Source: Promethearchaeota archaeon (lineage in GTDB: Archaea > Asgardarchaeota > Lokiarchaeia > Sigyniarchaeales > Promethearchaeaceae). From it: a DNA stretch of 32,000 nt. Under the pieces are notes generated by a model that worked only from the letters and a program-made list of their open reading frames with translations, was not told the origin of the DNA and did no database searches. The stretch spans positions 1-32,000 of the forward strand of contig JAFGBS010000036.1 in the NCBI GenBank assembly GCA_016933055.1, in the 5' to 3' direction. The position numbers were made by a program, and so were the translations under genes. Below are positions 211 through 23,214 of the stretch, in pieces. Positions within the stretch are counted from its first letter, which is position 1. Every line of letters starts with the position of its first letter.

Positions 211-990
211 ATGGAGTTATCAAAAAGTACATTATTGTTGTCATTACAATATAAGGGTACATTTAATATCCTGGATTTGATGGGTTATGTGCCCATTAAA
301 TATAATGAATTGAAACTTAGACTGAAGGAGCAGATTTCAGCGCGCACTCTCGACCATCGTTTAAGTGATCTCGTAGAAGTAGGTCTTCTGGCGCGAACGA
401 CAATATTTTATGGACAAAACCAATTATTGAAGGAATATGAACTAACTACCCAAGGAATTCTAGTAAAAGCATTACTAAACGGAATCGCTCTTCAAGATCG
501 AAATACAATAGCTATAACATTGAAATCTGTCAGTAAAACCACACCACTATCTCAAATCCCTCAAACTACACAAATTGAAAAATCCATTCTCCAAAAAACC
601 CTCACAGACGTGTCGCGAATATATCGTATTTATCAAAAATTTAATTGGAAAGAGACATGGAATAGTTTAAAACGGATTTGTAAAAGAAACGGTGAGATTA
701 TGACTCTTTCCGCGCACCCACAAAAAAACGTGATAATCGATGTTTCCGATATGGGGATCGAAGTGGAAACAACCAAAGGAAAAAGGTTAGTTGAAACAGG
801 GAAAATAAAACAAGCTTATTCATGGTTGTTAAAAGATGGAAAACTTGATCGGGATGATCATAAAAAAGCTAGTTATCGGAGTTCTTTCATTTGTGCATTA
901 CTAAGTAAGTTGGAATGGGTGGATTATCAGAAGAAACCAAAAATAACAATCTTTCTGAAGGAAAATAGTACTAATTCGATTAGAATCTGA
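211..990 (+). CDS. HxlR-type winged-helix protein fused to an unnamed C-terminal 'SYRSSF' domain
   Basis: N-terminal ISARTLDHRLSDLVEVGLLART...EYELTTQG matches the HxlR wHTH pattern. The last ~115 aa align with the C-terminus of ORF 11014..12672 (SYRSSFICALLSKL vs SYRSSFVCSLLSQL). Confidence 0.7.
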   Translation: MELSKSTLLLSLQYKGTFNILDLMGYVPIKYNELKLRLKEQISARTLDHRLSDLVEVGLLARTTIFYGQNQLLKEYELTTQGILVKALLNGIALQDRNTIAITLKSVSKTTPLSQIPQTTQIEKSILQKTLTDVSRIYRIYQKFNWKETWNSLKRICKRNGEIMTLSAHPQKNVIIDVSDMGIEVETTKGKRLVETGKIKQAYSWLLKDGKLDRDDHKKASYRSSFICALLSKLEWVDYQKKPKITIFLKENSTNSIRI

Positions 991-1101
991 TTGAAACTAC
1001 CTTATATCAATATCTATCCTTTCAAAAAATCACTCCCGCTATGTATTAAGCGAAAAGTTTTGCGCTTAGAACCATTTAACCTGTAACTCACTTTCAGATT
1101 C

Positions 1102-2508
1102 ATGGGTTCATCACATGAATCTCCCCGTATTTCAACTGGAATGTTCCGAGCACTGGGAATTACTTCTGATATTTCAATTCTTTTGCAACTCCAAACAGTA
1201 AATCTTGAAGTACATAACTGGGATAAGATATTGAATGATTTACAATCCGTATGGAAAAATCAGAATTATCTCTATATGTTAATTAAAGAGGATGAACAAC
1301 AGATTTATGCATTTTATATCGGAAAATCCACACAAAAGAAATTTCGACGCCTAATTGATCATTTTGAAGGATTGAAAAAAGCAGAACAGGCATATGAAAA
1401 TGATCAACTCGATATGGCTTTTTTTCATCATCGTATGTATCACCAACTATTCACAACAAAATCATCCATACCATTAAGATTGGATATAATTGAGTGGAAG
1501 GAAAACAAAACGATGCTGGGGATCTTTCCTTTTCCTATTGAATGTAATGTTAGTAATGCAGAAGCTCTCCTGATCTCCCATTTATCATCCCATTTCCCTG
1601 AAGCAAATATTAACCACGATTTTATCACTAGGTTGCGATGGAATCATCTCAACCTCTCAAATTTACAAATATCTTCTAATGTTCAAGTAATTATTGAGGG
1701 AAACTCCCCAGTACAATTATGGAATAATTGGTGTGACCAGTGGTTTTTGCAACCAAAATTACTAATCTCAACGAAATCGAAAAAGGCTAATAATTTCCTT
1801 GAGTCTTCAATTGAACATATTCCTTTATTCTCAACTATTTCTTTAGAAGATGGAAAACAAGAAGTCCAAACACACCTGAGTAAAAATGGAACCCTTCTAT
1901 TCATACGGTCTCCCTCAATGGAAAAACAGGTAATCAATGCGGTGAAAATTGTGAAAGATTCCTATGATTACTACGTAAAAAATCAAGCATCAATCCACAA
2001 ACCATTTTTTAGTGATGGTTTGGTCTATATGGTATATTTATTGCGAGATGACGCGAAAAAAATAGGATTACCGTTAGAAATTGAGCAACAAACAGAGATC
2101 ATTCCTATTTATATAGGCCAAACGCAAGCTGTAGGACGATCAAGTGGAGGATTTTCCAAAAATTTGAAAGGTGTTGCTAAAGGGAAAAACAAGCAATATT
2201 TTGCACGATGGGGGAACGACAGAGCACGCCATATCGGAGGTTTATCCCTCCGATTTTATGATCTTCCTAATAATTATAAAAGTACGAATTATGAACAGTG
2301 GGTTGAAACAATATTTGATAATCTATGCCGGGTACAAAAACGCCCAATTCTTAAGTGTCCTGTTTATTTCCAGATGAAACCTACTTATCCATATAATGTG
2401 GTATTTGGTGGAAAATTGGGACTTTTTACTCCCGAATTGGAAACAATCCTGATTGCTTTAGGTCGTCAGTTATTCCCAGAGATTCTAATTAATAAGGCAA
2501 AACGTTAA
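1102..2508 (+). CDS. Protein with two tandem GIY-YIG-like nuclease domains
   Basis: Domain 1: YLYM...FYIGKS...RRLIDH...EALLI...FPEANIN. Domain 2: LVYMVY...IYIGQT...ARWGNDRARH...ETILI...FPEILIN. Confidence 0.65.
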   Translation: MGSSHESPRISTGMFRALGITSDISILLQLQTVNLEVHNWDKILNDLQSVWKNQNYLYMLIKEDEQQIYAFYIGKSTQKKFRRLIDHFEGLKKAEQAYENDQLDMAFFHHRMYHQLFTTKSSIPLRLDIIEWKENKTMLGIFPFPIECNVSNAEALLISHLSSHFPEANINHDFITRLRWNHLNLSNLQISSNVQVIIEGNSPVQLWNNWCDQWFLQPKLLISTKSKKANNFLESSIEHIPLFSTISLEDGKQEVQTHLSKNGTLLFIRSPSMEKQVINAVKIVKDSYDYYVKNQASIHKPFFSDGLVYMVYLLRDDAKKIGLPLEIEQQTEIIPIYIGQTQAVGRSSGGFSKNLKGVAKGKNKQYFARWGNDRARHIGGLSLRFYDLPNNYKSTNYEQWVETIFDNLCRVQKRPILKCPVYFQMKPTYPYNVVFGGKLGLFTPELETILIALGRQLFPEILINKAKR

Positions 2509-2538
2509 TTTCTTTCGAGCCACCTACCTCTTTTAGAT

Positions 2539-2835
2539 TTAATTGTTGTATTTTCCTCCTTCATTAAATACAGAATGAAATGCTTCACTATAACACTTAA
2601 TACACACATTTATTATTTTTGAACCATCGTTAGATAAGTGGAAATATTGCTCTATGAGGGGCTTTTTGGATGATTTAGATGAATTTAAGTAGTCTAAAAG
2701 ATACTCCTGATCTTCAGAATTTATGCATGATAACTCAAAATCAACTTTTTGATACTCTGATATATTTATAGGAGAATTACAGTAATAACAGAACGTTATC
2801 GATGAGTTCTTCATTTTATCAAACTGTGAGTTCAT
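2539..2835 (-). CDS. Small putative zinc-binding protein
   Basis: 98-aa ORF with CYYC and CIKC pairs, and a TATA-like sequence about 20-30 nt upstream. Confidence 0.5.
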   Translation of the reverse strand: MNSQFDKMKNSSITFCYYCNSPINISEYQKVDFELSCINSEDQEYLLDYLNSSKSSKKPLIEQYFHLSNDGSKIINVCIKCYSEAFHSVFNEGGKYNN

Positions 2836-2920
2836 GTTGATTAGGAAAATCCTTTATATTTAAATCCAAAAATGGATATAAACAACACAAAACATCGCAT
2901 TAAAAAAAAAAACAAATGAT

Positions 2921-3400
2921 TCAGGTTGGTAATTCAATTACTTTTTGTTTAGAGATTATTTCAATTAATCTTTTAGGTTCTTTTTTTAATAGTGTGGAAA
3001 TCAGTTGTAAATATCCCCCGATTCCTCGTTTATCAATAGCAATCACTACTTTTGGATGGTCTAAGTAGTCTTCAACAACCTTACGATATTTTTTTCCCAT
3101 GATAACCAAAATCTTATCGTAATTCTGTAAATATTTTTCAAATTGGTCATTTGTTGCCGATTTTAATCTCAGAATATCTTGCATCGTCTCGATCCTTTTC
3201 TCATATGGTTCTATAACATCATCTGAGTCAATAAGTCCGTATTTTGCACTCAGAATCTTAAGCTTTGCATCTATTTTTCGAGATAACTTCACAATCATCT
3301 TGAACAGTTGACCTTGATATAATTCGATTGCTTTACTCGATCTGTCAAGTTTAGATTTAGAGCAACTTGTTAATATCATTATTTTGGGTTTCAAATGCAA
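2921..3400 (-). CDS. DUF6884/YaaA-like family protein (start probably TTG at 3394)
   Basis: ILTSCSKSK...AIELYQGQLF...ILSAKYGLI...IEPYE pattern. An AGGAG SD lies 7 nt before the TTG at 3394. Confidence 0.65.
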   Translation of the reverse strand: MHLKPKIMILTSCSKSKLDRSSKAIELYQGQLFKMIVKLSRKIDAKLKILSAKYGLIDSDDVIEPYEKRIETMQDILRLKSATNDQFEKYLQNYDKILVIMGKKYRKVVEDYLDHPKVVIAIDKRGIGGYLQLISTLLKKEPKRLIEIISKQKVIELPT

Positions 3401-3476
3401 TCTCCTTTACACCAAATGATGATTCAATGGTCAATTCTAGTATTGTTTTTAGCACTTATGTACATTATTTACTCAA

Positions 3477-4565
3477 ATGTCATCAATACCCACCGATTCA
3501 TTTGAAGACATTTCCACAGAATTCTCCCACTACTTCCAGGTCGGTTCGCTGACTTCCAGTTATAAGCCCGTTCTCCTAAAGTCGATTTTATTTTGTATAA
3601 AGCGAGGCAAAACTCAACGTATGAGGGATATTCACTTCATATCCATGGATAACATTGCCATCTATTTCCTTAAATTCTACTTCTCGCTATATCGGCGCTT
3701 TAATATTAAGCAATTGACCTCGAAAAATAACAAAATCACGATCTATCGGATAATCGACCGTTATATCGATGAAGAAACCACGAAATTATACGATCGGGAC
3801 ATCTCGGATGAGATTGTTGATAAGATAAAAAAAGCCCTTTATAGAAATGTCATTTATCTGCTGAGACAAGATTCATATTTTTATGAATTCTACGATTCCC
3901 ATCACGATGTGATCGCTTTACCCCGTGAGATAAAGGATGAGCAAGATTTCAACCATCTGCTTAAGAAACTTGACGTACACCGCAGAGAAATCGCTTTCAT
4001 CGGCATCCCGGATAAAATTGTTTTATTCATCGAAATGAATCGCCCAATTCTGGATGCCGCGATTAATGCGAATCTTGCTCTATTTCTGGAAAAGATTAAC
4101 ACAGTTCCAAATTTGAACATCAAAATTCTTGCAGCGGATGGTAGTTTCGATGAGATCCGAAACATCTCTCCATTATTAAAAGAGAAATTATGTGCGTATC
4201 AGAACGACTGTTGTTTTTATTGCGGGAAAAACATGAGTGATACTGCCGAAGCGGATCATTTTGTACCGTATAATTATCTTTTTGACTCTCAGATTTGGAA
4301 CATCGTCGGTGCGTGTGAGAAATGCAACGGGAAAAAGTCGAATCATGTGGTTCAGGAAGAATATTTGAGGAAAATACAGGAACGGAATTTGGAAGAGGAA
4401 TTTAGGCACGTATTTTTCCAAGATAGACTGGATTCGTTGGAATTTGCGCAAAATATGAATAAAATCTTGGAACAGCACTATCGGAATTGTTTATTAAATT
4501 TCAAATTGCTAAAAAAGCGAAATCTTTCAGTTGATTTTGGAAAAGAAATATCTCATATGTACTAA
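3477..4565 (+). CDS. HNH endonuclease with a 'SYKPVLL' N-terminal putative DNA-recognition domain
   Basis: CCFYCG...EADHFVP...WNIVGACEKCNGKKSN is a zinc-binding HNH motif. N-terminal TSSYKPVLLKSIL is typical of this HNH family. Confidence 0.85.
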   Translation: MSSIPTDSFEDISTEFSHYFQVGSLTSSYKPVLLKSILFCIKRGKTQRMRDIHFISMDNIAIYFLKFYFSLYRRFNIKQLTSKNNKITIYRIIDRYIDEETTKLYDRDISDEIVDKIKKALYRNVIYLLRQDSYFYEFYDSHHDVIALPREIKDEQDFNHLLKKLDVHRREIAFIGIPDKIVLFIEMNRPILDAAINANLALFLEKINTVPNLNIKILAADGSFDEIRNISPLLKEKLCAYQNDCCFYCGKNMSDTAEADHFVPYNYLFDSQIWNIVGACEKCNGKKSNHVVQEEYLRKIQERNLEEEFRHVFFQDRLDSLEFAQNMNKILEQHYRNCLLNFKLLKKRNLSVDFGKEISHMY

Positions 4566-4652: not shown

Positions 4653-6626
4653 CTAAGGATCTTTTTTCGCTGAGTTGGTATCTATTCGATCTAAATATTC
4701 TTGATAAGCTTGGAATTTCTGTGTTATGATATTGTTAATGAAATTCCCAATCTTTATTTCAAAGTCATATTTAGTTCTATCTCTTTTTTGGAGTTGCTCT
4801 ACCATAACTTTAGATAGGTATTCTGAAAACTCTTTCTTGTTTATTCCAAAGAGTATCTCATCTGTAACAATATCTTCAACTTTTTCCTCATCTTTCATTT
4901 CTGATAGTCTTTTTCTAGCTTGATCATAAATTTCCTCTTCTTTTCCTTCATAACTTTCTTCATTGTCTGATATGTATTTTTTTATTGCACGAATGATTTC
5001 TTCATGGGAAAAATTAACTGTAGCAAAATCGGGATATGGTAAGTAATAGTTTTCTTCAGGTATGCCCTTATCTTTGAGATTTGCTACTTTACCTGGCAGA
5101 GATTCTTTTTTATCCAAATCTAAAACAAGGAAGGATCTCTTGCTAATAACTTTGAAATAGTATTCAATGAAAAGGAAGTCTCTACTTTTACCATTTAAAG
5201 GAACTGCGATAACTGGTACTCCAATTATATAATAAACCATATATAACCATTCTCTTAAGAAAATATAATCTGTTGAGCCTTCTACAAAAATAATTACAGA
5301 ATTTTTTGGGGTTAATCCGTAATCTAGAAGTAGATTATCGAGGTGTTCATAGAATTCTTCTTCTGTATCAAAATAAAAATTTGGTTTCCAAAAATCTGTT
5401 GCTTTTTCTTTTTCTGCAGGAAATTGCAATCCATTTTTTTCCCAAATTTTCGTAAATGCCTCTAAGTATCGGGATATTTGAATGAGGTTCATGAGGTAAT
5501 TGAGAAATCCTTTAAGTTTTTTTTTTTTGCTTGGTTTGATGATAGACAATATGTCAACAATTTTCTCTAAACCATCGAAATTTCCGACCAAAAGACATTC
5601 TATCTTTTTATAGAGATCTCGAAGAGTCTTTAAGTCATCAGTTGAAAAATCAGAGGATAGAGATTTTAGCTTTTTATCATACCAATTATTATACTCCGAA
5701 ATCCCATCTTGAACATTTTTATTATCATCCCTTACCCAAGGATCGTATTTCCTCCAACTCATATTAACGCGTGGATTACTTCCTAGAGTGTAAAAAAAAG
5801 GACGTGTAAAGGATTCCACTCTAATCCATAATCTCAAAATATCAGGTTTTAGCCAACAATACTGGACGTAAAATATTTCTCTGAGAAGATTATAATTTTT
5901 CGCCGAATCGACTTTCATTTGAATAAATTCTTCTATGGAATTGTTTTTAGATTTCAATGATTCTTTTATTCGATTTATTACGTAGTCATCAAATCGAAAT
6001 CTGCGTATCCAATAGAATTTCTCAAAATGACTCCTATTACTTAATAATGATAAAGAATCACCTCTCATTAGGGTCATAGCTTGAATGAACTGGATTGGAT
6101 GGTAATAATATCGAGTTTCTTCAATAGAAATTTTTATATATTTCTCTTCAGTAGTTTCAGATATTTCAGTTTTTTTTTCCTCGGGAACCTCAAGGGTATG
6201 CTCAATTTTCTGATGATTCCAAAAATCTGTTTCAATAAAGTTATTTAATTTACTCTCTTCCGTGGTATCAATATTATAAATTTCCTCCGGAAAATCTATA
6301 ATTCCAAAATCGTCCATTTTTTTCCATGAATTTAGAGTAACCCTATTAATCAGAACCTCCTTATCGTTGATACATTGAAGGAATGGATGGTTTTTTGGGA
6401 ATTTTGCAACACAAAAGGGCTTGATCAATCCAATAAAGTTATACCATTCCATTAGTATACAAAAATCCTCAAATCTCTCAAATCCTCTTTTTATTTTCAG
6501 TTTTGAATACCATATAAACATATCTTTCAAATCTATTAACTCTCGAGCATATATGGGGCAGTAATTTAAATATTCTTCGAAAATCTCTCGATAATTGTTA
6601 GATTTGGTTTCAGAATCAGCCATCAA
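4653..6626 (-). CDS. Protein with a C-terminal OLD-type TOPRIM domain and a large unassigned N-terminus
   Basis: IIFVEGSTDY and FLVLDLD (DxD) TOPRIM motifs in the last third. No Walker A motif was seen in the N-terminal ~440 aa. Confidence 0.65.
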   Translation of the reverse strand: MMADSETKSNNYREIFEEYLNYCPIYARELIDLKDMFIWYSKLKIKRGFERFEDFCILMEWYNFIGLIKPFCVAKFPKNHPFLQCINDKEVLINRVTLNSWKKMDDFGIIDFPEEIYNIDTTEESKLNNFIETDFWNHQKIEHTLEVPEEKKTEISETTEEKYIKISIEETRYYYHPIQFIQAMTLMRGDSLSLLSNRSHFEKFYWIRRFRFDDYVINRIKESLKSKNNSIEEFIQMKVDSAKNYNLLREIFYVQYCWLKPDILRLWIRVESFTRPFFYTLGSNPRVNMSWRKYDPWVRDDNKNVQDGISEYNNWYDKKLKSLSSDFSTDDLKTLRDLYKKIECLLVGNFDGLEKIVDILSIIKPSKKKKLKGFLNYLMNLIQISRYLEAFTKIWEKNGLQFPAEKEKATDFWKPNFYFDTEEEFYEHLDNLLLDYGLTPKNSVIIFVEGSTDYIFLREWLYMVYYIIGVPVIAVPLNGKSRDFLFIEYYFKVISKRSFLVLDLDKKESLPGKVANLKDKGIPEENYYLPYPDFATVNFSHEEIIRAIKKYISDNEESYEGKEEEIYDQARKRLSEMKDEEKVEDIVTDEILFGINKKEFSEYLSKVMVEQLQKRDRTKYDFEIKIGNFINNIITQKFQAYQEYLDRIDTNSAKKDP

Positions 6627-6739: not shown

Positions 6740-6922
6740 GTGATAGTACGATTTTGATTCTATTTAGATTCTGTGGACCCGAACCTTTATCCGTCTCACC
6801 TACCCGCATGAACTGTTTAAAACTACGTTGTTAACTATTCAGACAATACTGTTACCTCTTCTACATGTGTTGAGAGAGGAAAAATGGATGAAAAATTATT
6901 TAAATCACTAGATAGATGTTGA
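6740..6922. repeat. Copy 1 of a diverged ~180-bp non-coding direct repeat (copy 2 at 13607-13779)
   Basis: Shared blocks: TTCTGTGGA, CCTTTATCCGT, CACCTACCCGCA, TACTGTTACCTCTT, ACATGTGT, GAGGAAAAATG and ATTTAwATCAC..GA.AGAT.TTGA. Confidence 0.85.
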
Positions 6923-7372
6923 CTGGTTATACTGGATTTGGAGGTGGGTTGGGATCATGCATAATTTCAACCACATCTGATTGAGAACTCTCTTCTTGCT
7001 CTCCAAACCACTCATTATCATTGTTTTGAGCAATAACTTCGAGTGTGGAAGTTTCTATCGAGTCTGGAGTGTCAATGCTATAAACATGGGATGTTTGTCC
7101 ACACATTATTTCTCTCTTGTTGCAGAAATTTATACAATTCTCTTGAAGAACATGATTTAGAAGAAAGAGAACACGAAGAGGATGGGAGGGTGTTCGTCAT
7201 GAAATTGACAAGATTGGGGTAATCTGTTGCCATTTTGTTCGTTTAGGTATTCTTTAAAGATATTTTATTGGAATTTTATCGAAAACGAACAATCAGCACT
7301 TAAATTCAACAGTAAAATTATATACGAAATTTTAGATATACAGAATGAGTTCATTTTATTGAGGAGGTTTTT

Positions 7373-8317
7373 TTGGATAAAAATAATCAAGATTACCTAT
7401 ATTTACGTAAATTAGGATTATCACATGAAGAAATCATAAATCGAATAAAACGGTACAGTAATCAGGGATTAACCGAAAGCGATGCATTAAAGACTCTAAA
7501 AACAGATGAAGAGAGAATCATTGAAATTCATATCGAAATCGAAGGATTAAAAGTTTATTTTCTTAAGGTTCTTGCAGAGATTTTAGAGTTTCAAGTGATC
7601 CCAAATTTTCGTCAAGAACCTATTGATCTTGAACTCTATGGTATAAACAATCAAAAACTGTATGAAATTAATTCATTACCTGTGTTGTTGGCAGTATTAG
7701 AAGAGATTAAAGCAGAAAATGAAAAACGAATACCTGCAAAATATCCAGATTGGAATGATTATGGATATTTTCCTTATCATCGAAATCAAGCTATATCCAA
7801 ATTATTAGAAAGTCGTGATTGGTATGTAGGAAGGTTAAAAACATATAAAAAACAAGGAATTTCAATAGATTTTCCATTCCAATCAGTAAAACCCACGTTT
7901 TTTAAAATTCCTGATAAAATCCAAAATACAAACTTAATCTCGGTTATGATGCCTTTCAGAGAAGAATTTGATCCTATTTTTCAGGAAATCATGAAAGTTT
8001 GTGAAAACTTATCTATGGAATGCAAACGAGCTGATCAGATATTCGATAACTATATTGCAATTCAAGATGTGTTTGATTTAATATATCTCGCTCGTTGTAT
8101 TATTGTGGAACTTACAGGAAAAAATCCGAATGTATTCTATGAGTTAGGGATTTCTCATGCTTTTGGGAAAAAAGTCATTCCGATTATCCGAAAAAGTGGA
8201 GAAAAAATTCCATTCGATGTGCAACATCACAAGGCTATCGAATATGAGGGTGATAAAATGGATGATTTCCGAGAGAAACTGGATAAACGACTAAAAATCA
8301 TATTGAGTATTGCTTAG
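7373..8317 (+). CDS. Protein with a C-terminal nucleoside 2-deoxyribosyltransferase-like / TIR-like domain
   Basis: VMMPF...CKRAD...IIVELTGKNPNVFYELGISHAFGK...IPFDV...IEY is the signature of this family. TTG start with a GAGGAGG SD. Confidence 0.75.
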   Translation: MDKNNQDYLYLRKLGLSHEEIINRIKRYSNQGLTESDALKTLKTDEERIIEIHIEIEGLKVYFLKVLAEILEFQVIPNFRQEPIDLELYGINNQKLYEINSLPVLLAVLEEIKAENEKRIPAKYPDWNDYGYFPYHRNQAISKLLESRDWYVGRLKTYKKQGISIDFPFQSVKPTFFKIPDKIQNTNLISVMMPFREEFDPIFQEIMKVCENLSMECKRADQIFDNYIAIQDVFDLIYLARCIIVELTGKNPNVFYELGISHAFGKKVIPIIRKSGEKIPFDVQHHKAIEYEGDKMDDFREKLDKRLKIILSIA

Positions 8318-8440
8318 TTGAATGAGATTTCATTCAAACTATCATAATCTTAATGGAATCGAATTTTACGTGAAAAAGGATTTTCAGGTAATTATTTAAG
8401 TCTCAATGTTAAAGGAATTCAATGGTATTATTACTTTTTA

Positions 8441-11017
8441 ATGGGTCTAGGGGTAAAGATGAGTACGTTAACCAAAATGGGTGTGGAATTATATAATCTG
8501 ATCAGCAACGTATTACGTTCTTATTCAAATGAAATCTCACCTTATGAAGCATTTGTCGATGAAATTGCTCAAAATTTCTTTGATTCTGCTAAAAAATATT
8601 ATAGGTATTGCGTCAAGGAAAATGTAAAACCAATAAATTCATCAATGAAAGTTCTTTTTATCGAAGATTATAATGGAAAACCAGCAATTGTAATTAAACA
8701 AACCGGTACAACAGGTATTATCCATAGAAAAGAATATGTCACATATTCTTTAACTCAAAAGGATAAGGATGAAGACGCTGCAGGAAGTCAAGGAGTTGGC
8801 TGGAAAATATGGTTTATGATATGCGATGAAGTGCATACAGAGACTATAGTCGATGGGAGATATTATCAAACTCTCCAAAGGGTAGAAAATAGAGATATAA
8901 AGGTCGCCCATAATGACGATAATTGGAGTACATATTTTGAACATTTTCAAGACACATTAATAAGTGAAAATGGAGAAACTTCAATAAAGTTCTTGAATGT
9001 GAACAATTCACACGGTTTTAACGAAGATGAATCAACAACATATTTTCAAGAATTATGGAAATGTTGTGAAAAAGTAATTCAGGAAAGATATTATTGGGCT
9101 CTGAAAAAATATCCTACATTTAGTGTTGATTTGATTTATACAAATTCAAAAAAAACTCAACCATCTCAGAAAGTCACTATCTCCCTTAATGAATACCCTC
9201 CTTTATATCCAGGATTAAATGATTCCGATTGCAGAACCTCAAATAAATTCATTCGTAACAAGACCAAAAATTACGGTGTGGTCAAAGATATCTTTGTTGG
9301 ATTTACAAATGAAATTCATTCAAAAATAAATGATGGAGTAGCAATTATTGTCAGAGATAGGGTAGTTGAATGGTATAATCCTAGGTCACAATGGGTTGGA
9401 ACGCCTGGTGCTAATGGAAAATTAATTGGTCATGTTTGTTGTGATTTTCTATATAAAAAAGACAATATGACTCATGATAAATTAAATGATATTTTTCCCG
9501 AAGTAAAACTGACTAGGCATTTCATAAGAACGTTGATACAGAAACTATACGTAAAAATAAATGAACTTCATGTTGTTGATGTGCCTAAAGTTTCACACGG
9601 AAATACAATTTTAACAACAATAAACAACGCAATTGCTGAATTTATTGATAGTGAGGATTTGTTTTCAGAAGCAAAATCAGATATTGACTATGAACCTTTG
9701 GGAGAAGAACCATTTAATAAAACTCCTAAACCTGAGAAATTCATTTATATCAAAGGAATTTTATTAACTGAAAAAATTGAAGATGGAATTCCCCAAAAAA
9801 TGAATGATACTGATCCATTAACTCCGAGTAATGAATATAGCGCGTTAGTGGAAATTTTAAACACAAAAGATGAATGTGAAGCTATTGTCAATTACTCTTC
9901 ATTTCCAAAATATTTTGAAATTAAAAGAGCGATAAAAATATCCCCAGGAACCACTAAGGACATTTTTAAATTCCAGATACCCGAAGATGCAATGAGAGGA
10001 GCATTTCATTTAAAAAGTATTGTTAGATCTCAAGATGAAAAACTATTGGAAAAAAGGATCATTTCAAGAGAAATCCTACCTATAATTTCAAAGGTAGAAT
10101 TATCTGAAAGAAATTTTGAGAGAGGGAATGAATATCAAATTTCCTATAAGGTTTGTAGATCCTCTTTGAGGGGAAACAGAGAATTCTCGTGCAAAATATA
10201 TGACAATGAAAATTTTGAAATTCATGAAGAAGGACCTATAACTTTAAAACGGGCTGAAACAGATAAAATTGAATCTTTTTATTTTAAAATTCCCCCTCAA
10301 GCACTAAGAGGGAGATATACTTTTGAGTATCAGGTAAAAAATGGACCAAATATCATACAAAAAGGAAGAGAATACTTCTTTGTGGAGTTATTCATCAATA
10401 GAATAAAATCATCAAAACGAATTGTAAAGTACAATGAAAAATTTGATATTACCGTCGATCTTGAAAATAAAAGACAGATCCCTGTAGAAGATGCAGAATT
10501 AACAATAAGAATTGAAAATTCTAATCATTTTGAAATGAAAAAAGAATTTACAAACATTTCTATTCAGAAAAATTCAGACTTCGCAATAAAACTTGGAGAT
10601 TTAGAATTTGATGAAGATTGTGATACAGGAAAATATAGTGTTATTGTTGAATTCAAGCTAGAAGATGATTTTGCTCCAGAAGTGAAAACAACAAAAATTT
10701 TCCTCGAAACAGAAACTAGTACCAAAGATTCGAAGGGAGCTCTTAGTCATTTTGATTATAATAAGAGCATTAAAGGATATGAGGATAAAAATCTGGCAGT
10801 TTCTGTTGAAGGCACAATAATGATCAATACTTTTCATTATTTATTTAGGCGAATTGAAACTCCTACTGGGATTGATCTCAATCTATTCAAACAATGCATC
10901 ATTCAAGCATTATGGTTTGCGTTTCGAGATCAGATAACAAAGGATAATAGATTTGAAGAAATGTGGGAATTTGAGAAATATATACTAGAGGATAAAAAAT
11001 TGGGGGAGATTTTATGA
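8441..11017 (+). CDS. GHKL (MORC/Hsp90-like) ATPase with three Ig-like repeats (start possibly 8459)
   Basis: N-box DEIAQNFFDS, G1-like KQTGTTGI, G2 GSQGVGWK. Repeats FQIPEDAMRGAF, FKIPPQALRGRY and FDEDCDTGKY. C-terminal IMINTFHYLF resembles MORC tails. Confidence 0.7.
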   Translation: MGLGVKMSTLTKMGVELYNLISNVLRSYSNEISPYEAFVDEIAQNFFDSAKKYYRYCVKENVKPINSSMKVLFIEDYNGKPAIVIKQTGTTGIIHRKEYVTYSLTQKDKDEDAAGSQGVGWKIWFMICDEVHTETIVDGRYYQTLQRVENRDIKVAHNDDNWSTYFEHFQDTLISENGETSIKFLNVNNSHGFNEDESTTYFQELWKCCEKVIQERYYWALKKYPTFSVDLIYTNSKKTQPSQKVTISLNEYPPLYPGLNDSDCRTSNKFIRNKTKNYGVVKDIFVGFTNEIHSKINDGVAIIVRDRVVEWYNPRSQWVGTPGANGKLIGHVCCDFLYKKDNMTHDKLNDIFPEVKLTRHFIRTLIQKLYVKINELHVVDVPKVSHGNTILTTINNAIAEFIDSEDLFSEAKSDIDYEPLGEEPFNKTPKPEKFIYIKGILLTEKIEDGIPQKMNDTDPLTPSNEYSALVEILNTKDECEAIVNYSSFPKYFEIKRAIKISPGTTKDIFKFQIPEDAMRGAFHLKSIVRSQDEKLLEKRIISREILPIISKVELSERNFERGNEYQISYKVCRSSLRGNREFSCKIYDNENFEIHEEGPITLKRAETDKIESFYFKIPPQALRGRYTFEYQVKNGPNIIQKGREYFFVELFINRIKSSKRIVKYNEKFDITVDLENKRQIPVEDAELTIRIENSNHFEMKKEFTNISIQKNSDFAIKLGDLEFDEDCDTGKYSVIVEFKLEDDFAPEVKTTKIFLETETSTKDSKGALSHFDYNKSIKGYEDKNLAVSVEGTIMINTFHYLFRRIETPTGIDLNLFKQCIIQALWFAFRDQITKDNRFEEMWEFEKYILEDKKLGEIL

Positions 11018-12672
11018 CAGAGAAATTATTAGACACCGATAAAGGAAAACAAGATTATATAGATCCTATTGTAGGTGAAGATCCACTACTAAATACAGAA
11101 AAATCAGGTAGAGTATCTCAGATAGCTCAAAAGTTGCACCAAGCTTTGAATTTCAATGATAATGAATGGATTCAACTTGCGTTAGACTTACTCGTTGGGA
11201 AGATGATTATGGATTATAAATATCTAGTTATGGTAAAATATTCAGAGTATATAGGATTAGGAAAACAGAATATTTTTCTGGTTCATGATATCGGGACACT
11301 TGTTAATGATTTTGTGTCAAAACGAGAAATAGATTTAGAAAATAAAGAGTTTCGAAAGAGCTCAGGATTTACATTTAATCGAGGAAGTGTGATAAATCAT
11401 CTAACCTCTCTAATAGATTTTTCGTCCAAAAATGAAAAAAAATACAATTTCAATCAAACATATCTTCGAAATTTTTCAACTATTGCATATGAGTTTGACA
11501 AAAATGAATTGGATCCTGAAATCCCTGTATACATATATAAAGAATTAGTAGAACGAGTTCCAGTAGATATGTTTGAAACCCCTAATCAAAGAAAAAGGTT
11601 TCAAAATAATATATTAGAATTGCGTAGAGAAGAAACTTTCACAGACAGACACTTGAGGATTATAATAAATTTAGTAAGGGAAGATCCTATAAATAGAGCA
11701 AAAATTGAGTACATACGTCGAATTTTGCCTGATGTAAAAGAAATTAAAACTTCTATGAGTTTTCCTGATGCTTTAAATTATGTCAAATCTATTGAAAAAT
11801 CTGGTAAGCAGAAAAAAGAACAAGTACTTCCCAGTTTGGAACAGAATGGAGTGCTTCGTTTACCACAAGCTAATGATGTTTCAAAATTCATCAAAATTGT
11901 CCAAGATGTTTCTCATGGAATAACAAAACCAGAACAATTAGCCGATAATATAGAAATTTCTGAACGCCAGATACATTATTATAAGGATGCAGCTCAAATT
12001 CTAAATTTATTAACAGAGAATGGGAGAAATTATACATTCACACTCACCTCTATTGGTCAAAAACTTGCTGAGACTAAAGACGAAAACGAACAGAATGAAA
12101 TTTTATATCACCAAATAATGAAAACCGAAGTTATTAAGCACATTTTCTTAATGTTAAAAGAAAGTCAAGAAGATTATATCCTCGTTGAAGAATACTTGAA
12201 TGATTTAAAGCATAGGAGTGCTCTATCTGATTCTACGATCGCAAGAAGAACAGCAGCTATAATAAGCTGGATTAGATGGATTGAAAGTTACAATGAATTA
12301 TTACGGATTGTCGAAGAAAAAATAATAGTTAAGAACGAATTCTCTTGGAATTGCGTTAAAAAACAAATTCTTGAAATTATCAATAAATATCGAACAATCA
12401 ATACACTAGCTAATGGAAAACCAAATATTATCGAAGTATTTGATGATACAGGATTAATGGTAAAGACTGATCACGACTCAGAAGCAAAAAAAGTTTCATT
12501 TAACACAATTAAAGATGTATGGTTCAATTTAGTAGAATATGGAGAATTAGAACTGGATAATCATGAGCTGACCTCTTATAGAAGTTCGTTTGTTTGCTCT
12601 TTATTGTCTCAATTACCAATTGTCAATGTTTTAAAAGAGGGAAAAATCTCGATAAAATTGGTTGGGATTTAA
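11014..12672 (+). CDS. Multidomain protein: unassigned N-terminus, DUF7226-like winged-helix region, C-terminal 'SYRSSF' domain
   Basis: LPQAND...RQIHYYKDAAQILNLL...LTSIG...SDSTIARRTAAIISWIRWI resembles wHTH domains of restriction-associated proteins. ATGA overlap with the GHKL gene and a GGGGAG SD. Confidence 0.6.
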   Translation: MTEKLLDTDKGKQDYIDPIVGEDPLLNTEKSGRVSQIAQKLHQALNFNDNEWIQLALDLLVGKMIMDYKYLVMVKYSEYIGLGKQNIFLVHDIGTLVNDFVSKREIDLENKEFRKSSGFTFNRGSVINHLTSLIDFSSKNEKKYNFNQTYLRNFSTIAYEFDKNELDPEIPVYIYKELVERVPVDMFETPNQRKRFQNNILELRREETFTDRHLRIIINLVREDPINRAKIEYIRRILPDVKEIKTSMSFPDALNYVKSIEKSGKQKKEQVLPSLEQNGVLRLPQANDVSKFIKIVQDVSHGITKPEQLADNIEISERQIHYYKDAAQILNLLTENGRNYTFTLTSIGQKLAETKDENEQNEILYHQIMKTEVIKHIFLMLKESQEDYILVEEYLNDLKHRSALSDSTIARRTAAIISWIRWIESYNELLRIVEEKIIVKNEFSWNCVKKQILEIINKYRTINTLANGKPNIIEVFDDTGLMVKTDHDSEAKKVSFNTIKDVWFNLVEYGELELDNHELTSYRSSFVCSLLSQLPIVNVLKEGKISIKLVGI

Positions 12673-13364
12673 TGAATTCACATGATGCTATTGCTCGGAA
12701 ATTTGAGAATTATTTCCAAAACGCACGTATGACTTCAAGCTATAAACCTGTGATGTTATTGTCAATTTTGTATCATATTAAACAAAGAAAATCCACGTAT
12801 CTTCCTTCTGCGAATATTTATTTTATTTCATTGAATGATATCGCACTATTTTTTCTGAAATTCTATTTTTATACGCTTAAGTATTATGATCTTAACCATT
12901 TGACCAATAAAAATAACAAAATTGGGATTTACAGAATAATTGAGAAATATTTCCGTGATTTCAATACATTCCCAGAGTACTTAAATCATAAAATTATCAC
13001 AAAAACAATCAACCAATTATTTCGAAATGTTATCTTCTTGCTACTGAATGATATATATTTATATGATTTTTACGATGAGCAATTTCAAGAATTTCGATTA
13101 CCTCACGAGTTTATTGGTAAAGATGATTTTCGAGTTGTTATCAAAAATAAAAAAATTCGAGTCGAAGAAATTAAGTACTTAGGAATTAAAGAATCAGCAT
13201 ACCTTTATCTTAGTTTAAATTATACGAATCTTAAAAAGAAGATAAACCTAAATTTGATTCAATTTCTAAAAAAAGTAAATTACTCTTTTGATTCCTTTGA
13301 TGAAATAGATAGATTTTATGATAATTTATCAAATTTGAAAAATATGATGTCAGATTCTAATTAG
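12672..13364 (+). CDS. Paralog of the N-terminal domain of HNH 3477..4565, lacking the HNH domain (truncated or repurposed)
   Basis: TSSYKPVMLLSIL...FISLNDIALFFLKFY...KNNKIGIYRII aligns with 3477..4565. The true start is the ATG at 12672 (TAATG overlap), not 12594. No CxxC/HNH motif. Confidence 0.8.
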   Translation: MNSHDAIARKFENYFQNARMTSSYKPVMLLSILYHIKQRKSTYLPSANIYFISLNDIALFFLKFYFYTLKYYDLNHLTNKNNKIGIYRIIEKYFRDFNTFPEYLNHKIITKTINQLFRNVIFLLLNDIYLYDFYDEQFQEFRLPHEFIGKDDFRVVIKNKKIRVEEIKYLGIKESAYLYLSLNYTNLKKKINLNLIQFLKKVNYSFDSFDEIDRFYDNLSNLKNMMSDSN

Positions 13365-13422
13365 CTCAGAAATTCTATTTCTAAAGATATGGTAATTTGT
13401 CGTCTTGGACTCTCTGGAAAGA

Positions 13423-13551
13423 ATGGAAACTACCGAAAAAGTATTTTTTCAAATTAGGATTAATTCGGTAGAATTTGCTAAAAATATGAATATAATCTTG
13501 GAACAGCACTATCGAAATTTTTTATTGTATTTTAAATCAGTAAAAATGTAA
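13423..13551 (+). pseudogene. Detached C-terminal tail of the HNH paralog
   Basis: Translates to VFFQIRINSVEFAKNMNIILEQHYRNFLLYFK, versus VFFQDRLDSLEFAQNMNKILEQHYRNCLLNFK in 3477..4565. It is in a different frame from 12672..13364. Confidence 0.85.
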
Positions 13552-13606
13552 AATGCAAAGTCCAAAGTGTAAACAATAGGAATTGCTATTGGTCCACATC
13601 TTTAAT

Positions 13607-13779
13607 GTGATAACATATTTTTGATTCCATTTTTGGTTCTGTGGATACGAGCCTTTATCCGTGCCACCTACCCGCACGAACCGTTTAACACTATATTGTT
13701 ACCTATTCGGACTATACTGTTACCTCTTTAACATGTGTCAAGTGAGGAAAAATGATTTATATCACACGACAGATATTGA
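13607..13779. repeat. Copy 2 of the ~180-bp non-coding direct repeat
   Basis: See copy 1. Contains ACTATATTGTTACCT (13690) and ACTATACTGTTACCT (13711) at 21-bp period. Confidence 0.85.
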
Positions 13780-14582
13780 TAAATAGTGTTTAACCAAATT
13801 TCTATTTTTATTTTTTGTGTGTAATGATTATGGCATCACAAACAAAAACTGCTAAAAACGGTAATTAAGTATGGTGAATTATTCGGTGCTCCCCGTCTTT
13901 TGGATATTACCCACAATGCTCACTTCGTAATGTCGATGGGGGTAGTATTATTTAAGAGATTTTTTGATTTAGTGGAAAACATCGTAGATGCGGGTTTCCC
14001 GTAATTATACCACCCTTTACAATTGATCCATATCCCATTGATTATAAGAATGTGAAATCGAACAATCAACAAAAAATTGTTGAAAGATCTTGTATAAGAA
14101 ACAAGATTACCTTGAGAAGATATATAAAAAATGGGATTTCAAGGGAAGAATGGATATTCCTGTGTATGTTATCTATCTGAAGTAGGAAATATCCCAAAAA
14201 GGGGAGATTTTCTCGTATGGTCCGATTCCACTGCGATAGTTTATATACATGGAAGATATGACTCGTTTTGGTAAAATATTTAGTTTTTCATATTTTCCCT
14301 AACTTAACTTTTGATTTTTTCAGGTACTGAGTGGTTAATAGGTACTCTATTAAATAAATGATTTATTTTGCTTGCCAGCCTATCTCTTTGATCTTTTCCT
14401 TAGATTTTGCGATTCTTCTTAAATTTTTGATCCCATATTGGATAAGCTCATTTACCTAGGCAGTCATTAAAAGTCACACACTCTTCTACTAATTTGTACT
14501 AAGTTGTTGAAAAAGTACATTTCATAATAAACTTAACAAATGAATAGTAATCCTGAGATGCAGAATAATTCCATATCCGGAT

Positions 14583-17371: not shown

Positions 17372-18718
17372 ATGAGTATGTTGAGTCAAAACCTTAAGAA
17401 AACCATCCAAAACATGCATACAATCCCTTGGAAACTATATCTTTCTGTGTTATTGACACATCTTTTACCAACAATTTACGTTACCATTCGCATTTACTTC
17501 CTCGGTGATTTACCCAGCGATTGGGGTGTAAACATTGCTTCGCAACTAGTTTGGATAAGTTTAGTTTTAGAAGTCATACAGGAAGGTCTCATCCTACCAC
17601 TTTTTTACATTATTGGTAAGACTTCTAAAGATCGGAACGAAACAATCAATAAGGTAAAGACTGGTTTACTAATTACGATTGGAATTCATGTTCTCATTCT
17701 CGCAATTGTTGGGATATTCACTCCCGCTTTCGTACGGGCAATGGCTCAAAATCCCGCATTACAAGACGCTACTGTAGTCTATATTCGCTTAGAACTAATT
17801 TCACTACTCATTCAAAGTGTTTTCAAATTTCTCTTTATCTTATTCATAATTTATGACCAAAGAGTAACCATTTATCTGCTTTTACTCGTGCAGATGATTG
17901 GAACGGTGATTTTGGATACATTTTTTGTTAGTTCGTTTTCATTTTCGCTTAATCTAGGAGTTAATGGCATCGCTTATTCAAATATCATTATCTATTCCCT
18001 CTTAGTAGGGATGAGCATTTATCGGGCTATTAGAACTTTTAAGCTAACGAAAAAAGATTGGCGGGTGCATACCAGCTTTACATGGCTGAAGGAATGGGGA
18101 CGTGTCGGAGGGTATTCAGCTATGGATTCCTTCATTCGCAACCTCTTCTATATGGTATTTATTATTCGAATGATGAATATAATAGCCGAACAAGGCACGT
18201 ATTGGGTTGCGAACGGATTTATTTGGAGTTGGTTATTACTACTCGTTTATCCGTTGACCGATATCATTAAGCAAAAAATTGCTACAACCCTTCCCGAAAA
18301 ACTCAAAGGATTTTTAAATCCATATTATCTATTTTCAACGATTATTGTTCTTCTTTGGTTTCTGACGATGCCAGGATGGATGTGGTTCATCACAAAAGTT
18401 CTCAATGCTGCGGAACCACAAACAGTATTTCGATTAGTGCTTTTATTGTTACCAGCCTATATTTCTTTTGTGTATAATACCGTAGCGGATGCCCTTTTCT
18501 ATGCCATTGGCAAAACTGAATCTCTTGCTATTCAAACGATTCTAACTAATATTTCTGTGTACGGAATTGCCTTTATCCTCTTTATTACTGGTAATTTCAT
18601 CCCCACGTTATATTCTATCGCAATTTTGTTTAGTATAGGCATAGTAATTGACGGGATCTTGACTTTCATACTGCTACGTTATTATATTCGCAAATATGAA
18701 ATGAATTCCACGCACTGA
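17372..18718 (+). CDS. MATE-family (Na+-driven multidrug efflux-type) transporter
   Basis: 448 aa with about 12 TM segments, LPTIYVTIRIYFLGDLPSDWGVNIASQL...EVIQEGLILPLFY pattern, and an AGGAG SD. Confidence 0.8.
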   Translation: MSMLSQNLKKTIQNMHTIPWKLYLSVLLTHLLPTIYVTIRIYFLGDLPSDWGVNIASQLVWISLVLEVIQEGLILPLFYIIGKTSKDRNETINKVKTGLLITIGIHVLILAIVGIFTPAFVRAMAQNPALQDATVVYIRLELISLLIQSVFKFLFILFIIYDQRVTIYLLLLVQMIGTVILDTFFVSSFSFSLNLGVNGIAYSNIIIYSLLVGMSIYRAIRTFKLTKKDWRVHTSFTWLKEWGRVGGYSAMDSFIRNLFYMVFIIRMMNIIAEQGTYWVANGFIWSWLLLLVYPLTDIIKQKIATTLPEKLKGFLNPYYLFSTIIVLLWFLTMPGWMWFITKVLNAAEPQTVFRLVLLLLPAYISFVYNTVADALFYAIGKTESLAIQTILTNISVYGIAFILFITGNFIPTLYSIAILFSIGIVIDGILTFILLRYYIRKYEMNSTH

Positions 18719-18995: not shown

Positions 18996-19829
18996 TTAAG
19001 AGCATGAATCACACAAAGGATTTTCACGTGATACATTACTCTCCTCTCCACATTTCAAACAAAACTTTCCTTTTTCATGTTTATAATAGCAAACTGTACA
19101 AAATGGAGTTTTTACGTTAAAAAAAACGAATTTTCTACAACCTATACAAAATCCACGTTCTTCAATTGGGCGTAGACTTAGTTTACCACATTCTGGACAA
19201 ATTAGAGTTTTATTACTATCTGTATTATGCATTAACTCAAAACCGCACAATTTACAAAGCCATATTCCTGATCGCTGTTCTTTAAAATTTTCAGGTTTAA
19301 CTTTTATTTCTTGACTTGAATTCATTATCGTCCAATCAATTGCAGGTAACAATTTTTCGTCGTATTCATCTGCAGTTTCGTGAATTGGTGTTGTATCTCC
19401 TGACCTCCTCATGGTTTCGACGTTTTCTATAACCTTGTCATATAAATTCTTATCCTTTATCGAAGTTTCTGGTTCTATTAAGAATCCCATTTCCCAATTT
19501 TTTTTCCAGGAAGATTTAAGAAGGTTTAGAGATGAAACAACCATTTTATTCTCATTATAATAACATTTCGAATGTAAATTAGCAACACAATAAAGATTAA
19601 CATATTTCAACTCTTCCGCTACACGCTTTGCTTCTTGGATAGTCGCTTTTTTCTTACGATAATATATTTCGACTAAAATACCTCTCTCCTTAGATGCATA
19701 TTTAAGATGAGAGTAGATTTTTTCCGGAAAGTCCAGAAAAGGACTGATTATAATTATGAACTTCCTCGCATCAATTATAACTTTAACAATCTCACCGCAT
19801 GCTGCTTCCATAGGTAGAAATTCGACCAT
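18996..19829 (-). CDS. Phospholipase D-like (single HKD) nuclease-type protein with six CxxC pairs
   Basis: IIISPFL...LHSKCYYNE...SSLNL...NWEMG, followed by CKLC, CPEC, CIGC, CTVC, CLKC and CDSC. Confidence 0.75.
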   Translation of the reverse strand: MVEFLPMEAACGEIVKVIIDARKFIIIISPFLDFPEKIYSHLKYASKERGILVEIYYRKKKATIQEAKRVAEELKYVNLYCVANLHSKCYYNENKMVVSSLNLLKSSWKKNWEMGFLIEPETSIKDKNLYDKVIENVETMRRSGDTTPIHETADEYDEKLLPAIDWTIMNSSQEIKVKPENFKEQRSGIWLCKLCGFELMHNTDSNKTLICPECGKLSLRPIEERGFCIGCRKFVFFNVKTPFCTVCYYKHEKGKFCLKCGEESNVSRENPLCDSCS

Positions 19830-21482: not shown

Positions 21483-21870
21483 GATTTTTTAATACACATA
21501 GTCTAATGATGCTAGGATGAATGTGATTCTTCACAAATGTTCTGAATGCTGCGGAACCAAAGGTAGTATTTCAATTAGTGCTTCTGTTATTACCAGCTTA
21601 TATTTCCTTTGTGTATAATACCGTAGCGGATGCCTTGTTCTATGCTATAGGCAAAACCGAATCTCTTGCAATTCAGACAATTGTAACTAATATTTCAGTC
21701 TATGGAACAGCCTTTGTTCTCTTCATCACGGGTAATTTCATCCCTACGGTATATTCCATCGCAATACTGTTTAGTATCGGCATAATTATCGATAGGACTT
21801 GACTTTTCTATTATTACGCCATTTTGTTCATAAACATAAACTTAATTCCAAGATCTTAGATTCCAGATAG
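21483..21870 (+). pseudogene. Decayed second copy of the MATE transporter 3' end
   Basis: Aligns to 18307-18718. Two TGG>TGA nonsense changes, a ~33-nt deletion near 21505 and a frameshift near 21798. The central part has mostly synonymous differences. Confidence 0.9.
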
Positions 21871-22503: not shown

Positions 22504-23214
22504 TTGAATCGATATGTCAATCTTTTCTTTGGAAATTCCCCTGGAGCAAGAATATGTAGCCAATCATTAACTCTTTGCCTATATTCTAATACAATATCTA
22601 TTAATATTTTTGCTTCATTAGGAATAAAGGCATCAGGTCGGACGAAAAAACTTCCAAATTCCTATCGAAATTCCAAAAGAGTAGGCGAATTCGCACAATT
22701 TATCATGCCCAAAAAATTGAAAGAATTATCAAAATCACAAGATGAATTTAGATTTCCCGAAAAATATATCGGAATGCATGGAAGTATCAATTATGTAATT
22801 GCAAAATCAAAAATTGAGGAATATGATGAAATCTTAAAGATAATTCAAGAAGAATTGAAGAATTCGACTAAAGGAAAATCATTTTTAGTTTTATTCCAAA
22901 GAAATCCATGGAACGACCGAAATAATAAGTTCTTTTCACAAGCTATGAAATACGATTTATTTGAAAATTTCCTGGATACTTGTACTTCCAGTGGATATGG
23001 GATTGTTGTGACTAGTTTGAGGAAAGCTAAAGGTTTAGAAGCTGACATCGTGTTCATTCCTGACCTGGAACAATATTATTATCAAGATCGACAACTCCTA
23101 TATGTAGGAATGACTCGGACGAAAAATAAGTTGATATTATCATCGACTGAACCGAGCCAACCTAAGTCACTGGTGGAAGAAATCCAAAAATATCCCGATT
23201 GGCAAGAAGAATAG
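22504..23214 (+). pseudogene. C-terminal half of a superfamily 1 (UvrD-like) helicase
   Basis: Motifs IV (NSYRNS), V (SLRKAKGLEAD) and VI (LLYVGMTRTK) are present. Walker A and B are absent. Confidence 0.7.

Follow-up and report, generated by a model that had tools for sequence, protein, structure and literature searches.

Introduction

Prokaryotic MORC and paraMORC proteins, which are GHKL ATPases, were predicted to belong to restriction-type loci by Iyer, Abhiman and Aravind in 2008 (PMC2292703). In that scheme paraMORC4 has a fused or neighbouring TIR domain and paraMORC1 is associated with HNH nucleases (PMC2292703). A 2026 preprint on Tiamat, a system with a GHL ATPase, still calls the roles of the prokaryotic MORC and paraMORC proteins 'proposed' (bioRxiv 10.64898/2026.09.30.754977). 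Here we describe a rare GHL ATPase with immunoglobulin (Ig)-like domains, together with its partner gene, in a 32,000-nucleotide stretch of DNA from a Promethearchaeota archaeon. This stretch, which we call the window, covers positions 1-32000 of contig C13 in a genome of 3.76 Mb, ~32% GC and 36 contigs. The small-subunit rRNA of this genome is best matched by the archaeal model. By its gene content, the window is a dense defence island.

Four co-directional open reading frames (ORFs) on the plus strand of the window concern us: gene 1 (7373-8317), gene 2 (8441-11017), gene 3 (11014-12672) and gene 4 (12594/12672-13364). The original prediction, made from the letters of the DNA, took them for a candidate undescribed defence system that may combine a sensor ATPase, a reader and an effector. 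The ORFs are all present, and the domain calls of the four genes essentially hold. The single system does not: elsewhere homologues of the four genes are not found together, an outcome that the original prediction named as refuting it, and co-occurrence is limited to gene 2 and the first ~265 residues of gene 3. On balance, and with moderate confidence, we read the four-gene stretch as a mosaic of three units in a defence island: a mobile effector gene (gene 1), a core pair (gene 2 and the first half of gene 3), and a reduced copy of a neighbouring cassette (the second half of gene 3 and gene 4).

The ATPase and its partner are the conserved unit

The conserved unit is gene 2 together with the N-terminal half of gene 3, and the two are always adjacent. 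The pair was sampled in eight loci including the window, mostly on short metagenome contigs. The seven others are L001, L002/L003 (the same protein on two contigs), L004, L005, L006, L057, which came from a metagenome scan, and G251/L036, which lies in a genome of the same order. That scan added only L057, and related-locus scans of genome contigs and viral contigs gave no relative. In all seven, the next gene downstream of the ATPase begins somewhere between an overlap and a distance of 14 nt. In all but L006 its product shows detectable homology to residues ~34-265 of gene 3, at 22-48% identity in L001, L002/L003, L004, L005 and L057; the L036 partner links to the partners of both L006 and L001, and it is through L036 that the L006 partner is tied to gene 3. 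Partners in the other loci have 229-456 amino acids (aa), and only the window's copy carries the DUF7226 and 'SYRSSF' domains that follow in gene 3.

An exhaustive HMMER search of 1.84 billion clustered proteins gave 14 representatives of the gene 2 family, and full-length copies were present in 2 of 400 genomes of the phylum. A patchy distribution of this kind is typical of mobile defence genes. No PADLOC-DB v2 model matched genes 2, 3 or 4 at E<=1, and a PADLOC search with five further gene 2 family members and two partners gave nothing except one weak local match to TmtA, in P0018. The view that the combination matches no known system goes too far, given the predicted precedents of paraMORC4 with TIR and paraMORC1 with HNH (PMC2292703).

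Gene 2 encodes 858 aa, or 852 aa from 8459. The ATG at 8459 seems the more likely start, since AGGGGT lies upstream and the product agrees with the 852-aa database form. Gene 2 has no match in Pfam, NCBIfam or PADLOC, and PDB sequence searches with genes 1-3 and profiles A1, A6 and A7 gave nothing significant. Its assignment comes from an AlphaFold2 model (me5408f15b4e3), whose mean predicted local distance difference test score (pLDDT) is 71 and only moderate in the ATPase module. This module spans residues ~11-395 (8471-9625), with a Bergerat fold and a transducer/middle domain. VIA-align of model residues 11-392 gave Hsp90 N and M domains at Z 17.1 (298 residues aligned, root-mean-square deviation 4.5), SMCHD1 at Z 16.2, MORC3 at Z 15.6 and Topo VI-B at Z 14.0, while Foldseek matched the module to Hsp90/TRAP1 at E about 1e-9 to 1e-10. 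At the level of fold, the predicted GHKL-Ig ATPase is therefore correct. Motif I is present as DEIAQNFFD (DExxQNFFD in the family), with E41, N45 and D48 nearly invariant in family alignment A1 and invariant in A2. Motif III is present as GSQGVGWK (GSxGxGWK in the family), with G115, G118, G120 and K122 nearly invariant.

Three tandem beta-sandwich domains of the Ig/MG type follow at residues ~435-756 (9743-10708), with mean pLDDT per 10 residues of about 80-93 over most of the stretch. In Foldseek this part finds MG domains, those from TEP1, CD109 and alpha-2-macroglobulin, with E values no higher than 5e-11, and its AFDB matches include CARDB and PKD proteins. The protein ends in a helical domain (10787-11014) with the motifs INTxHYLF and WEFEE, kept across the family in A1 and matched at 59% identity by a separate 85-aa database fragment. 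Uncharacterised bacterial proteins with the overall layout of gene 2 occur in AFDB (for example a 778-aa entry at E 6e-20), and the Atlas features search agrees. One family member matches the Pfam Sacsin domain at 0.02.

Gene 3 (552 aa) begins with the partner domain, residues ~34-265 (11113-11808), which is modelled as all-helical at pLDDT 80-92. No fold relative of this half is convincing: the DNA-binding domains of ParB/Spo0J and KorB reach Z 5-6, below the noise for helical proteins, and AFDB and Atlas searches were uninformative except for a 199-aa archaeal cluster (TM-score 0.58 by the hit). A complex prediction that combined two parts of gene 2 (residues 8-432 and 650-858) with residues 30-268 of gene 3 reached 0.74, versus 0.68 in a control with chain 1 swapped, and so speaks neither for nor against a complex.

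The right end of the four-gene stretch resembles a neighbouring cassette

The second half of gene 3 is made of two domains. Residues 293-425 (11890-12288) form a DUF7226 / AAA_assoc_C-type domain, assigned from Pfam profiles (PF23871 at 1.1e-17, PF09821 at 1.3e-6); the structure model is poor across this region, and a literature search for DUF7226 found no paper. Residues 444-549 (12343-12660) form the SYRSSF domain, which belongs to no named family, is 37% identical to the C-terminus of the ORF at 211-990 and, across 400 genomes of the phylum, has relatives in 10 others. A word-based homologue search among shorter proteins found nothing for gene 3 residues 285-552.

Gene 4 (12672-13364, 230 aa) had been called the N-domain of an HNH-family protein that lacks its nuclease, and alignment with the paralogue at 3477-4565 bears this out. 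Over the whole N-domain, gene 4 aligns with residues 7-227 of that protein at 39% identity. The paralogue matches HNH_4 at 3.5e-6, and the segment with its HNH motif, residues 228-311, is missing from gene 4. Gene 4 itself has no Pfam match and, without an HNH motif, cannot be a nuclease of the HNH_4 family. Downstream, at 13441-13545 on the plus strand, an out-of-frame remnant of the paralogue's C-terminal tail persists (tblastn frame +2, 71% identical to paralogue residues 312-346; at the DNA level, repeat D3, 80% identical). A remnant of the HNH tail is also found on contig C4. Full-length HNH_4 enzymes with an N-domain of ~225 aa, of which gene 4 shares the N-domain and lacks the motif, are widespread in bacteria as seen in Atlas clusters.

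Both the SYRSSF protein at 211-990 and the HNH protein at 3477-4565 belong to one group of genes, cassette A (211-4565). It consists of a winged helix-turn-helix (wHTH)-SYRSSF protein with an HxlR-type wHTH (211-990), a 468-aa protein with two YIGK-type (GIY-YIG-like) motifs and weak Eco29kI/GIY-YIG matches (1102-2508), a 98-aa ORF, a DUF6884 gene on the minus strand (2921-3400; PADLOC candidate PDC-M57A at 8e-21, DpdC-like), and the N-domain-HNH_4 protein. The cassette recurs in six related archaeal genomes (L033, L034, L035, L037, L038 and L040), where the wHTH-SYRSSF protein, a ~460-aa protein and a ~90-aa ORF are joined often by DUF6884 and sometimes by the N-domain-HNH_4 protein. It looks like an undescribed restriction-like cassette. 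The C-terminal domain of gene 3 has a paralogue in cassette A, as does gene 4, and we read the right end of the four-gene stretch as a probable second, reduced copy of the cassette, fused in frame to the ATPase partner.

The loss of the HNH segment raises the possibility that genes 2-4 are a relic, once a system of ATPase, adaptor and HNH nuclease that was inactivated by deletion of the HNH motif. Several observations fit. The old tail is still there out of frame, no other nuclease or methylase is found within the unit, and paraMORC1 co-occurs with HNH nucleases (PMC2292703). The L057 pair, the closest relative of the window's pair, also has a reader-HNH gene upstream: a 302-aa protein (L057:1643-2548) with an N-terminal domain and a clear HNH motif. 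We nonetheless consider the relic unlikely. Genes 2 and 3 and the 230-aa ORF of gene 4 are intact, and their junctions have been preserved. The gene 3 ATG at 11014 overlaps the gene 2 TGA (ATGA, 11014-11017) with GGGGAG upstream, and in TAATG (12670-12674) the gene 3 TAA and the gene 4 ATG at 12672 share one base, both as given in the original prediction; both overlaps are preceded by purine-rich ribosome-binding sites. Several other loci (L001, L006 and L036) are without a recognisable nuclease, and an intact paralogous HNH enzyme lies 8 kb upstream, from where it could act in trans. A 'YQPVII' helix in the N-terminal domain of the L057 HNH protein looks similar to 'SSYKPVLL', a helix found in gene 4 and its paralogue; by BLAST this likeness does not reach significance.

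Gene 1 is best read as a separate effector gene

Gene 1 (7373-8317, 314 aa) starts with TTG, with GGAGG upstream. Its N-terminal ~180 aa are unique, and its C-terminal ~135 aa were proposed to be an effector domain like that of TIR proteins and nucleoside 2-deoxyribosyltransferases (NDT). The homologues support this. An Atlas search points to NDT, CAP12-TIR and AbiJ_NTD5-type proteins, and the PADLOC 'Effector TIR' model PDLC00733 matches residues 221-303 at 1.6e-8, a partial match to a generic model. Gene 1 itself has no Pfam match, and 4 of 15 aligned homologues match PF05014 (nucleoside 2-deoxyribosyltransferase), at best with 1.6e-9. The motifs MPF and NPNVxYExG (NPNVFYELG in gene 1) are invariant, including the Glu of YELG (residue ~257) in the 15 aligned relatives. 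In NDT enzymes the Glu of this loop is the nucleophile.

The family is large. Gene 1 has 724 homologues that have only the C-terminal domain in common with it, and most of them are ~257 aa long with an AbiJ_NTD5 N-domain. The closest described group is that of AbiJ_NTD5-linked NDT-like effectors, PF05014 and the CAP12/Pycsar TIR proteins. The C-terminal domain of gene 1 is 38-54% identical to those of the ~257-aa proteins and shares their invariant motifs, whereas its N-terminal 180 residues are unrelated to AbiJ_NTD5. Two sampled relatives lie in defence islands, at the end of a type I restriction-modification operon and beside Kiwa and DUF4062, and neither has a GHL-Ig ATPase nearby. Two further paralogues of the domain occur on small contigs with other domain partners (G000 C29:3404-4426, 45%; C26:3936-4703, 35%).

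The spacer between gene 1 and gene 2, reckoned to the start at 8459, is 141 bp long. A perfect 8-bp hairpin (8318-8325 / 8330-8337, plus strand, read from the sequence) lies right after the gene 1 stop, followed by T-runs at 8364 and 8381 and a TATA-like ATTATTTAA at 8391. With these elements in the spacer, the sequence gives no reason to assume that gene 1 is transcribed together with genes 2-4. Gene 1 is not coupled to gene 2; a terminator-like hairpin of its own is probable, as is a separate promoter for gene 2. A sigma-70 promoter and terminator scan found sites no commoner than in shuffled sequence, and the sigma-70 model is inapplicable to archaea. Gene 1 is best read from these data as an independent mobile effector gene of a large family.

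Could the four genes still be one system, with the ATPase and the wHTH/SYRSSF protein as sensors of invading DNA, gene 4 as its reader and the NDT/TIR-like domain of gene 1 as the effector? The genes run in one direction, and genes 2-4 are coupled by start/stop overlaps. A TIR_2 gene adjoins the pair in L001, DNA glycosylase genes (HhH-GPD and AGOG) adjoin it in L005, and paraMORC4 has a fused or neighbouring TIR (PMC2292703). Against this, the seven other pair loci lack homologues of both gene 1 and gene 4, the gene 1 family is widespread without this ATPase, and the hairpin, T-runs and spacer separate gene 1 from gene 2. The TIR protein of L001 shows no homology to gene 1, and its gene is oriented convergently to the pair. 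A four-gene system is therefore distinctly unlikely, and gene 1 as a separate unit remains our reading.

Neighbours of the pair elsewhere

Methylases are present in three of the eight pair loci (L001, L004 and L036), and Z1, HNH, TIR or PD-(D/E)XK-like genes in others. L004 has two C5 methylases, an EcoRII-N protein and a reverse transcriptase. L001 has an N6_N4 methylase besides its TIR_2 protein. In L005, a Z1-domain protein is found directly upstream of the pair, in addition to the two glycosylase-family genes next to it, and L002 has a weakly NERD/PD-(D/E)XK-like protein.

In L036 (G251:C5:8000-24000, about 7355-13825), a distant GHL-Ig ATPase of 863 aa, a partner of 407 aa and a C5 methylase of 349 aa are co-directional, the methylase following on the same strand 108 nt after the partner gene. 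A convergent gene for a DUF1802 and SYRSSF protein (289 aa) lies 350 bp from this operon. With a SYRSSF protein so close to the pair in a second genome, a functional tie between the domain and the ATPase pair may exist; alternatively, SYRSSF could be a cassette regulator. A shortened second C5 methylase and a HerA/DUF87 ATPase are also found in the vicinity.

A more distant relative occurs in L046 (G006:C42:1-4663), where a Z1-domain protein and a DUF4420 PD-(D/E)XK protein are followed by one of 782 aa. This last protein hits the central part of the GHL-Ig family profile (1.2e-11), and the layout resembles the Z1-linked neighbourhoods of Iyer 2008.

The repeats and other members of the island

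The four genes are flanked by two intergenic copies of a ~180-bp repeat (6740-6922 and 13607-13779, ~84% identical). The flanks are as first described, but the two copies are no private pair, as four more are found in the same genome (C6:420166-420349, C11:3989-4161, C17:30461-30633 and C36:103577-103708). The six are 73-90% identical, with a strongly conserved core of ~90 nt, and in each of the three checked (C6, C11 and C17) the gene just upstream, on the same strand, is an unrelated one. We rejected the idea that the two copies in the window mark the ends of a mobile element; a repeat dispersed beside unrelated genes is not a pair of cassette ends. It has no Rfam match and no convincing consensus fold.

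Within cassette A, the gap of ~2.2 kb between the end of the HNH gene and the repeat is filled by a 657-aa ORF on the minus strand (4653-6626) with no Pfam or PADLOC match. Since the matching gap in the second copy is only 77 bp, this ORF looks like an insertion.

Other members of the island are a PLD/DrmC-like nuclease (18996-19829), an AspBHI-N/Mrr-type restriction enzyme (23357-24589) and a GajB-like UvrD helicase (24786-27632). No Rfam families or tRNAs were found in the window. A direct repeat of 296 nt (84% identity) is present at 18361-18656 and 21502-21797, and one copy overlaps the 3′ end of the ORF at 17372-18718. The ORF at 22504-23214 is weakly similar to the C-terminal part of the UvrD-like helicase and shares a C-terminal peptide of ~20 residues with an ORF at the start of contig C4 (G000 C4:1-890). 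This shared peptide and the HNH tail remnant on C4 may be scars of recombination between defence islands.

Discussion

We take the core pair to be a very rare, undescribed and laterally scattered module of a GHL-Ig ATPase and its partner, probably of the paraMORC kind. It would act as a paraMORC-style, restriction-like module for telling self from non-self. As in MutL, MORC and Hsp90, gene 2 may dimerise into an ATP-operated clamp that closes on its substrate when nucleotide binds. The partner, which in the window carries DUF7226 and SYRSSF as well, would supply the contact with nucleic acid or another target. The pair could then license, position or direct a neighbouring enzyme, such as the C5 or N6/N4 methylases, TIR, HNH, Z1 or PD-(D/E)XK-like proteins found beside it. 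In this genome the partner seems to have gained the DUF7226 and SYRSSF extension, and behind it lies the gene for a nuclease-less HNH N-domain. Gene 4 may be either a decaying effector or a retained reader domain. Gene 1, going by its family, may cleave N-glycosidic bonds of nucleotides and act as an abortive-infection toxin. In this genome the candidate effectors near the pair come down to gene 1, which we regard as a separate unit, gene 4 without its nuclease part, and the HNH and GIY-YIG-like genes that cassette A retains intact.

Several points weigh against this reading. GHKL ATPases normally carry an adenine-binding Asp in motif II (DxGxG). Gene 2 has QTGTTGI (residues 87-93, 8699-8719) in its place, an equivalence taken from motif order and not from a residue-level structural alignment, and Q87 is found in all members, with no Asp. 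An invariant Gln in this position means that ATP use by gene 2 is not assured, and it is possibly a sign of altered nucleotide use. None of 11 gene 2 family members matches Pfam HATPase_c or HATPase_c_3 at E<=1, and hhalign of the family's N-terminal region with MutL-type proteins of related genomes gave E 0.09 at very low probability. The clamp model itself is built by analogy, and the sample of pair loci is small. No methylase or SF2 helicase adjoins the pair in the window. L006, with an ABC2 membrane protein, PAP2 and a peptidase, lies among ordinary-looking genes, so a defence role is not universal. Three further points allow for functional links, which we rank as secondary: TIR-like genes adjoin the pair in two of the eight loci, gene 3 is tightly coupled to gene 4, and a SYRSSF protein lies beside the G251 pair.

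A role outside defence, in Hsp90-like protein remodelling or in organising chromosome or plasmid DNA, with the pair merely riding in variable regions, would suit the Hsp90 chaperones as best structural matches of gene 2, the Ig-like domains that often bind proteins or glycans, the atypical motif II and the L006 neighbourhood without defence genes, but it is very unlikely given that the gene 2 family is patchy and rare, that the pair recurs beside DNA methylase, TIR, HNH, Z1 and EcoRII-N genes, and that the window is so dense in defence genes.

If the core pair is a defence module, it is tempting to speculate further, improbable as the full picture may be. The GHL-Ig ATPase and its partner might form a defence chassis that is itself independent of nucleases and plugs into interchangeable enzymes: methylases, TIR/NDT glycosidases, or HNH and PD-(D/E)XK nucleases. 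The DUF7226, SYRSSF and HNH N-domain reader might then have been captured from the neighbouring cassette to retarget it, and the Gln of motif II might confer an unusual nucleotide specificity.

GHL ATPases such as MORC, SMCHD1 and Hsp90 are central to genome silencing and antiviral responses in eukaryotes. The predictions for prokaryotic relatives of these in restriction-type loci date back to 2008, and nearly all are still no more than that. The gene 2 family offers a compact experimental handle on them, with a two-gene core, an obligate partner, clear catalytic residues and a natural variety of attached enzymes. The locus also illustrates how a defence island is rebuilt, with a partner fused to a domain whose paralogue lies in the cassette nearby, and with only the recognition domain left of a nuclease gene. 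The practical gain stays modest as long as no phenotype has been demonstrated.

Comparison with known systems

The resemblance of gene 2 to the solved structures of Hsp90, MORC3 and SMCHD1 is one of fold only. Residues ~11-395 match them at Z 15.6-17.1 over about 290-310 residues, at only 11-13% identity, and the C-terminal two thirds of gene 2, with the Ig repeats and the helical domain, lack a counterpart in them.

Tiamat (TmtA) is an antiphage GHL ATPase-nuclease of defence islands that is often found beside methylases, nucleases and helicases. P0018, a distant member of the gene 2 family, has a local TmtA match of 3.3e-5 over the region of motifs II-III. Gene 2 differs in having neither the DUF3684 middle region nor the C-terminal PD-(D/E)xK domain (NOV_C/DUF3883). 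Tiamat is also described as stand-alone, whereas a gene 2-type ATPase always comes with its partner gene. We considered membership of gene 2 in Tiamat and rejected it, as gene 2 has no TmtA, DUF3684 or nuclease match and its C-terminal part consists of Ig repeats and a short helical domain.

Among described systems, the nearest are the MORC and paraMORC1-5 ATPases of the GHKL-S5 type, with which we compared gene 2 through the descriptions in the 2008 paper and not through family profiles or sequences. Those descriptions are without the three Ig-like domains and the obligate helical partner gene, both of which are present here. Gene 2 in turn has no HATPase_c_3 match and a Gln for the Asp of motif II, and no SF2 helicase is found in the window or in most loci of the pair. 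For both groups function is predicted only. Both have an N-terminal GHKL and transducer domain with family-specific C-terminal extensions, and both are distributed sporadically and are laterally mobile. The neighbours seen in several loci of the pair (cytosine or adenine methylases in three of eight, and HNH, TIR, Z1-type or restriction-fold genes in others) recall those of the paraMORC loci.

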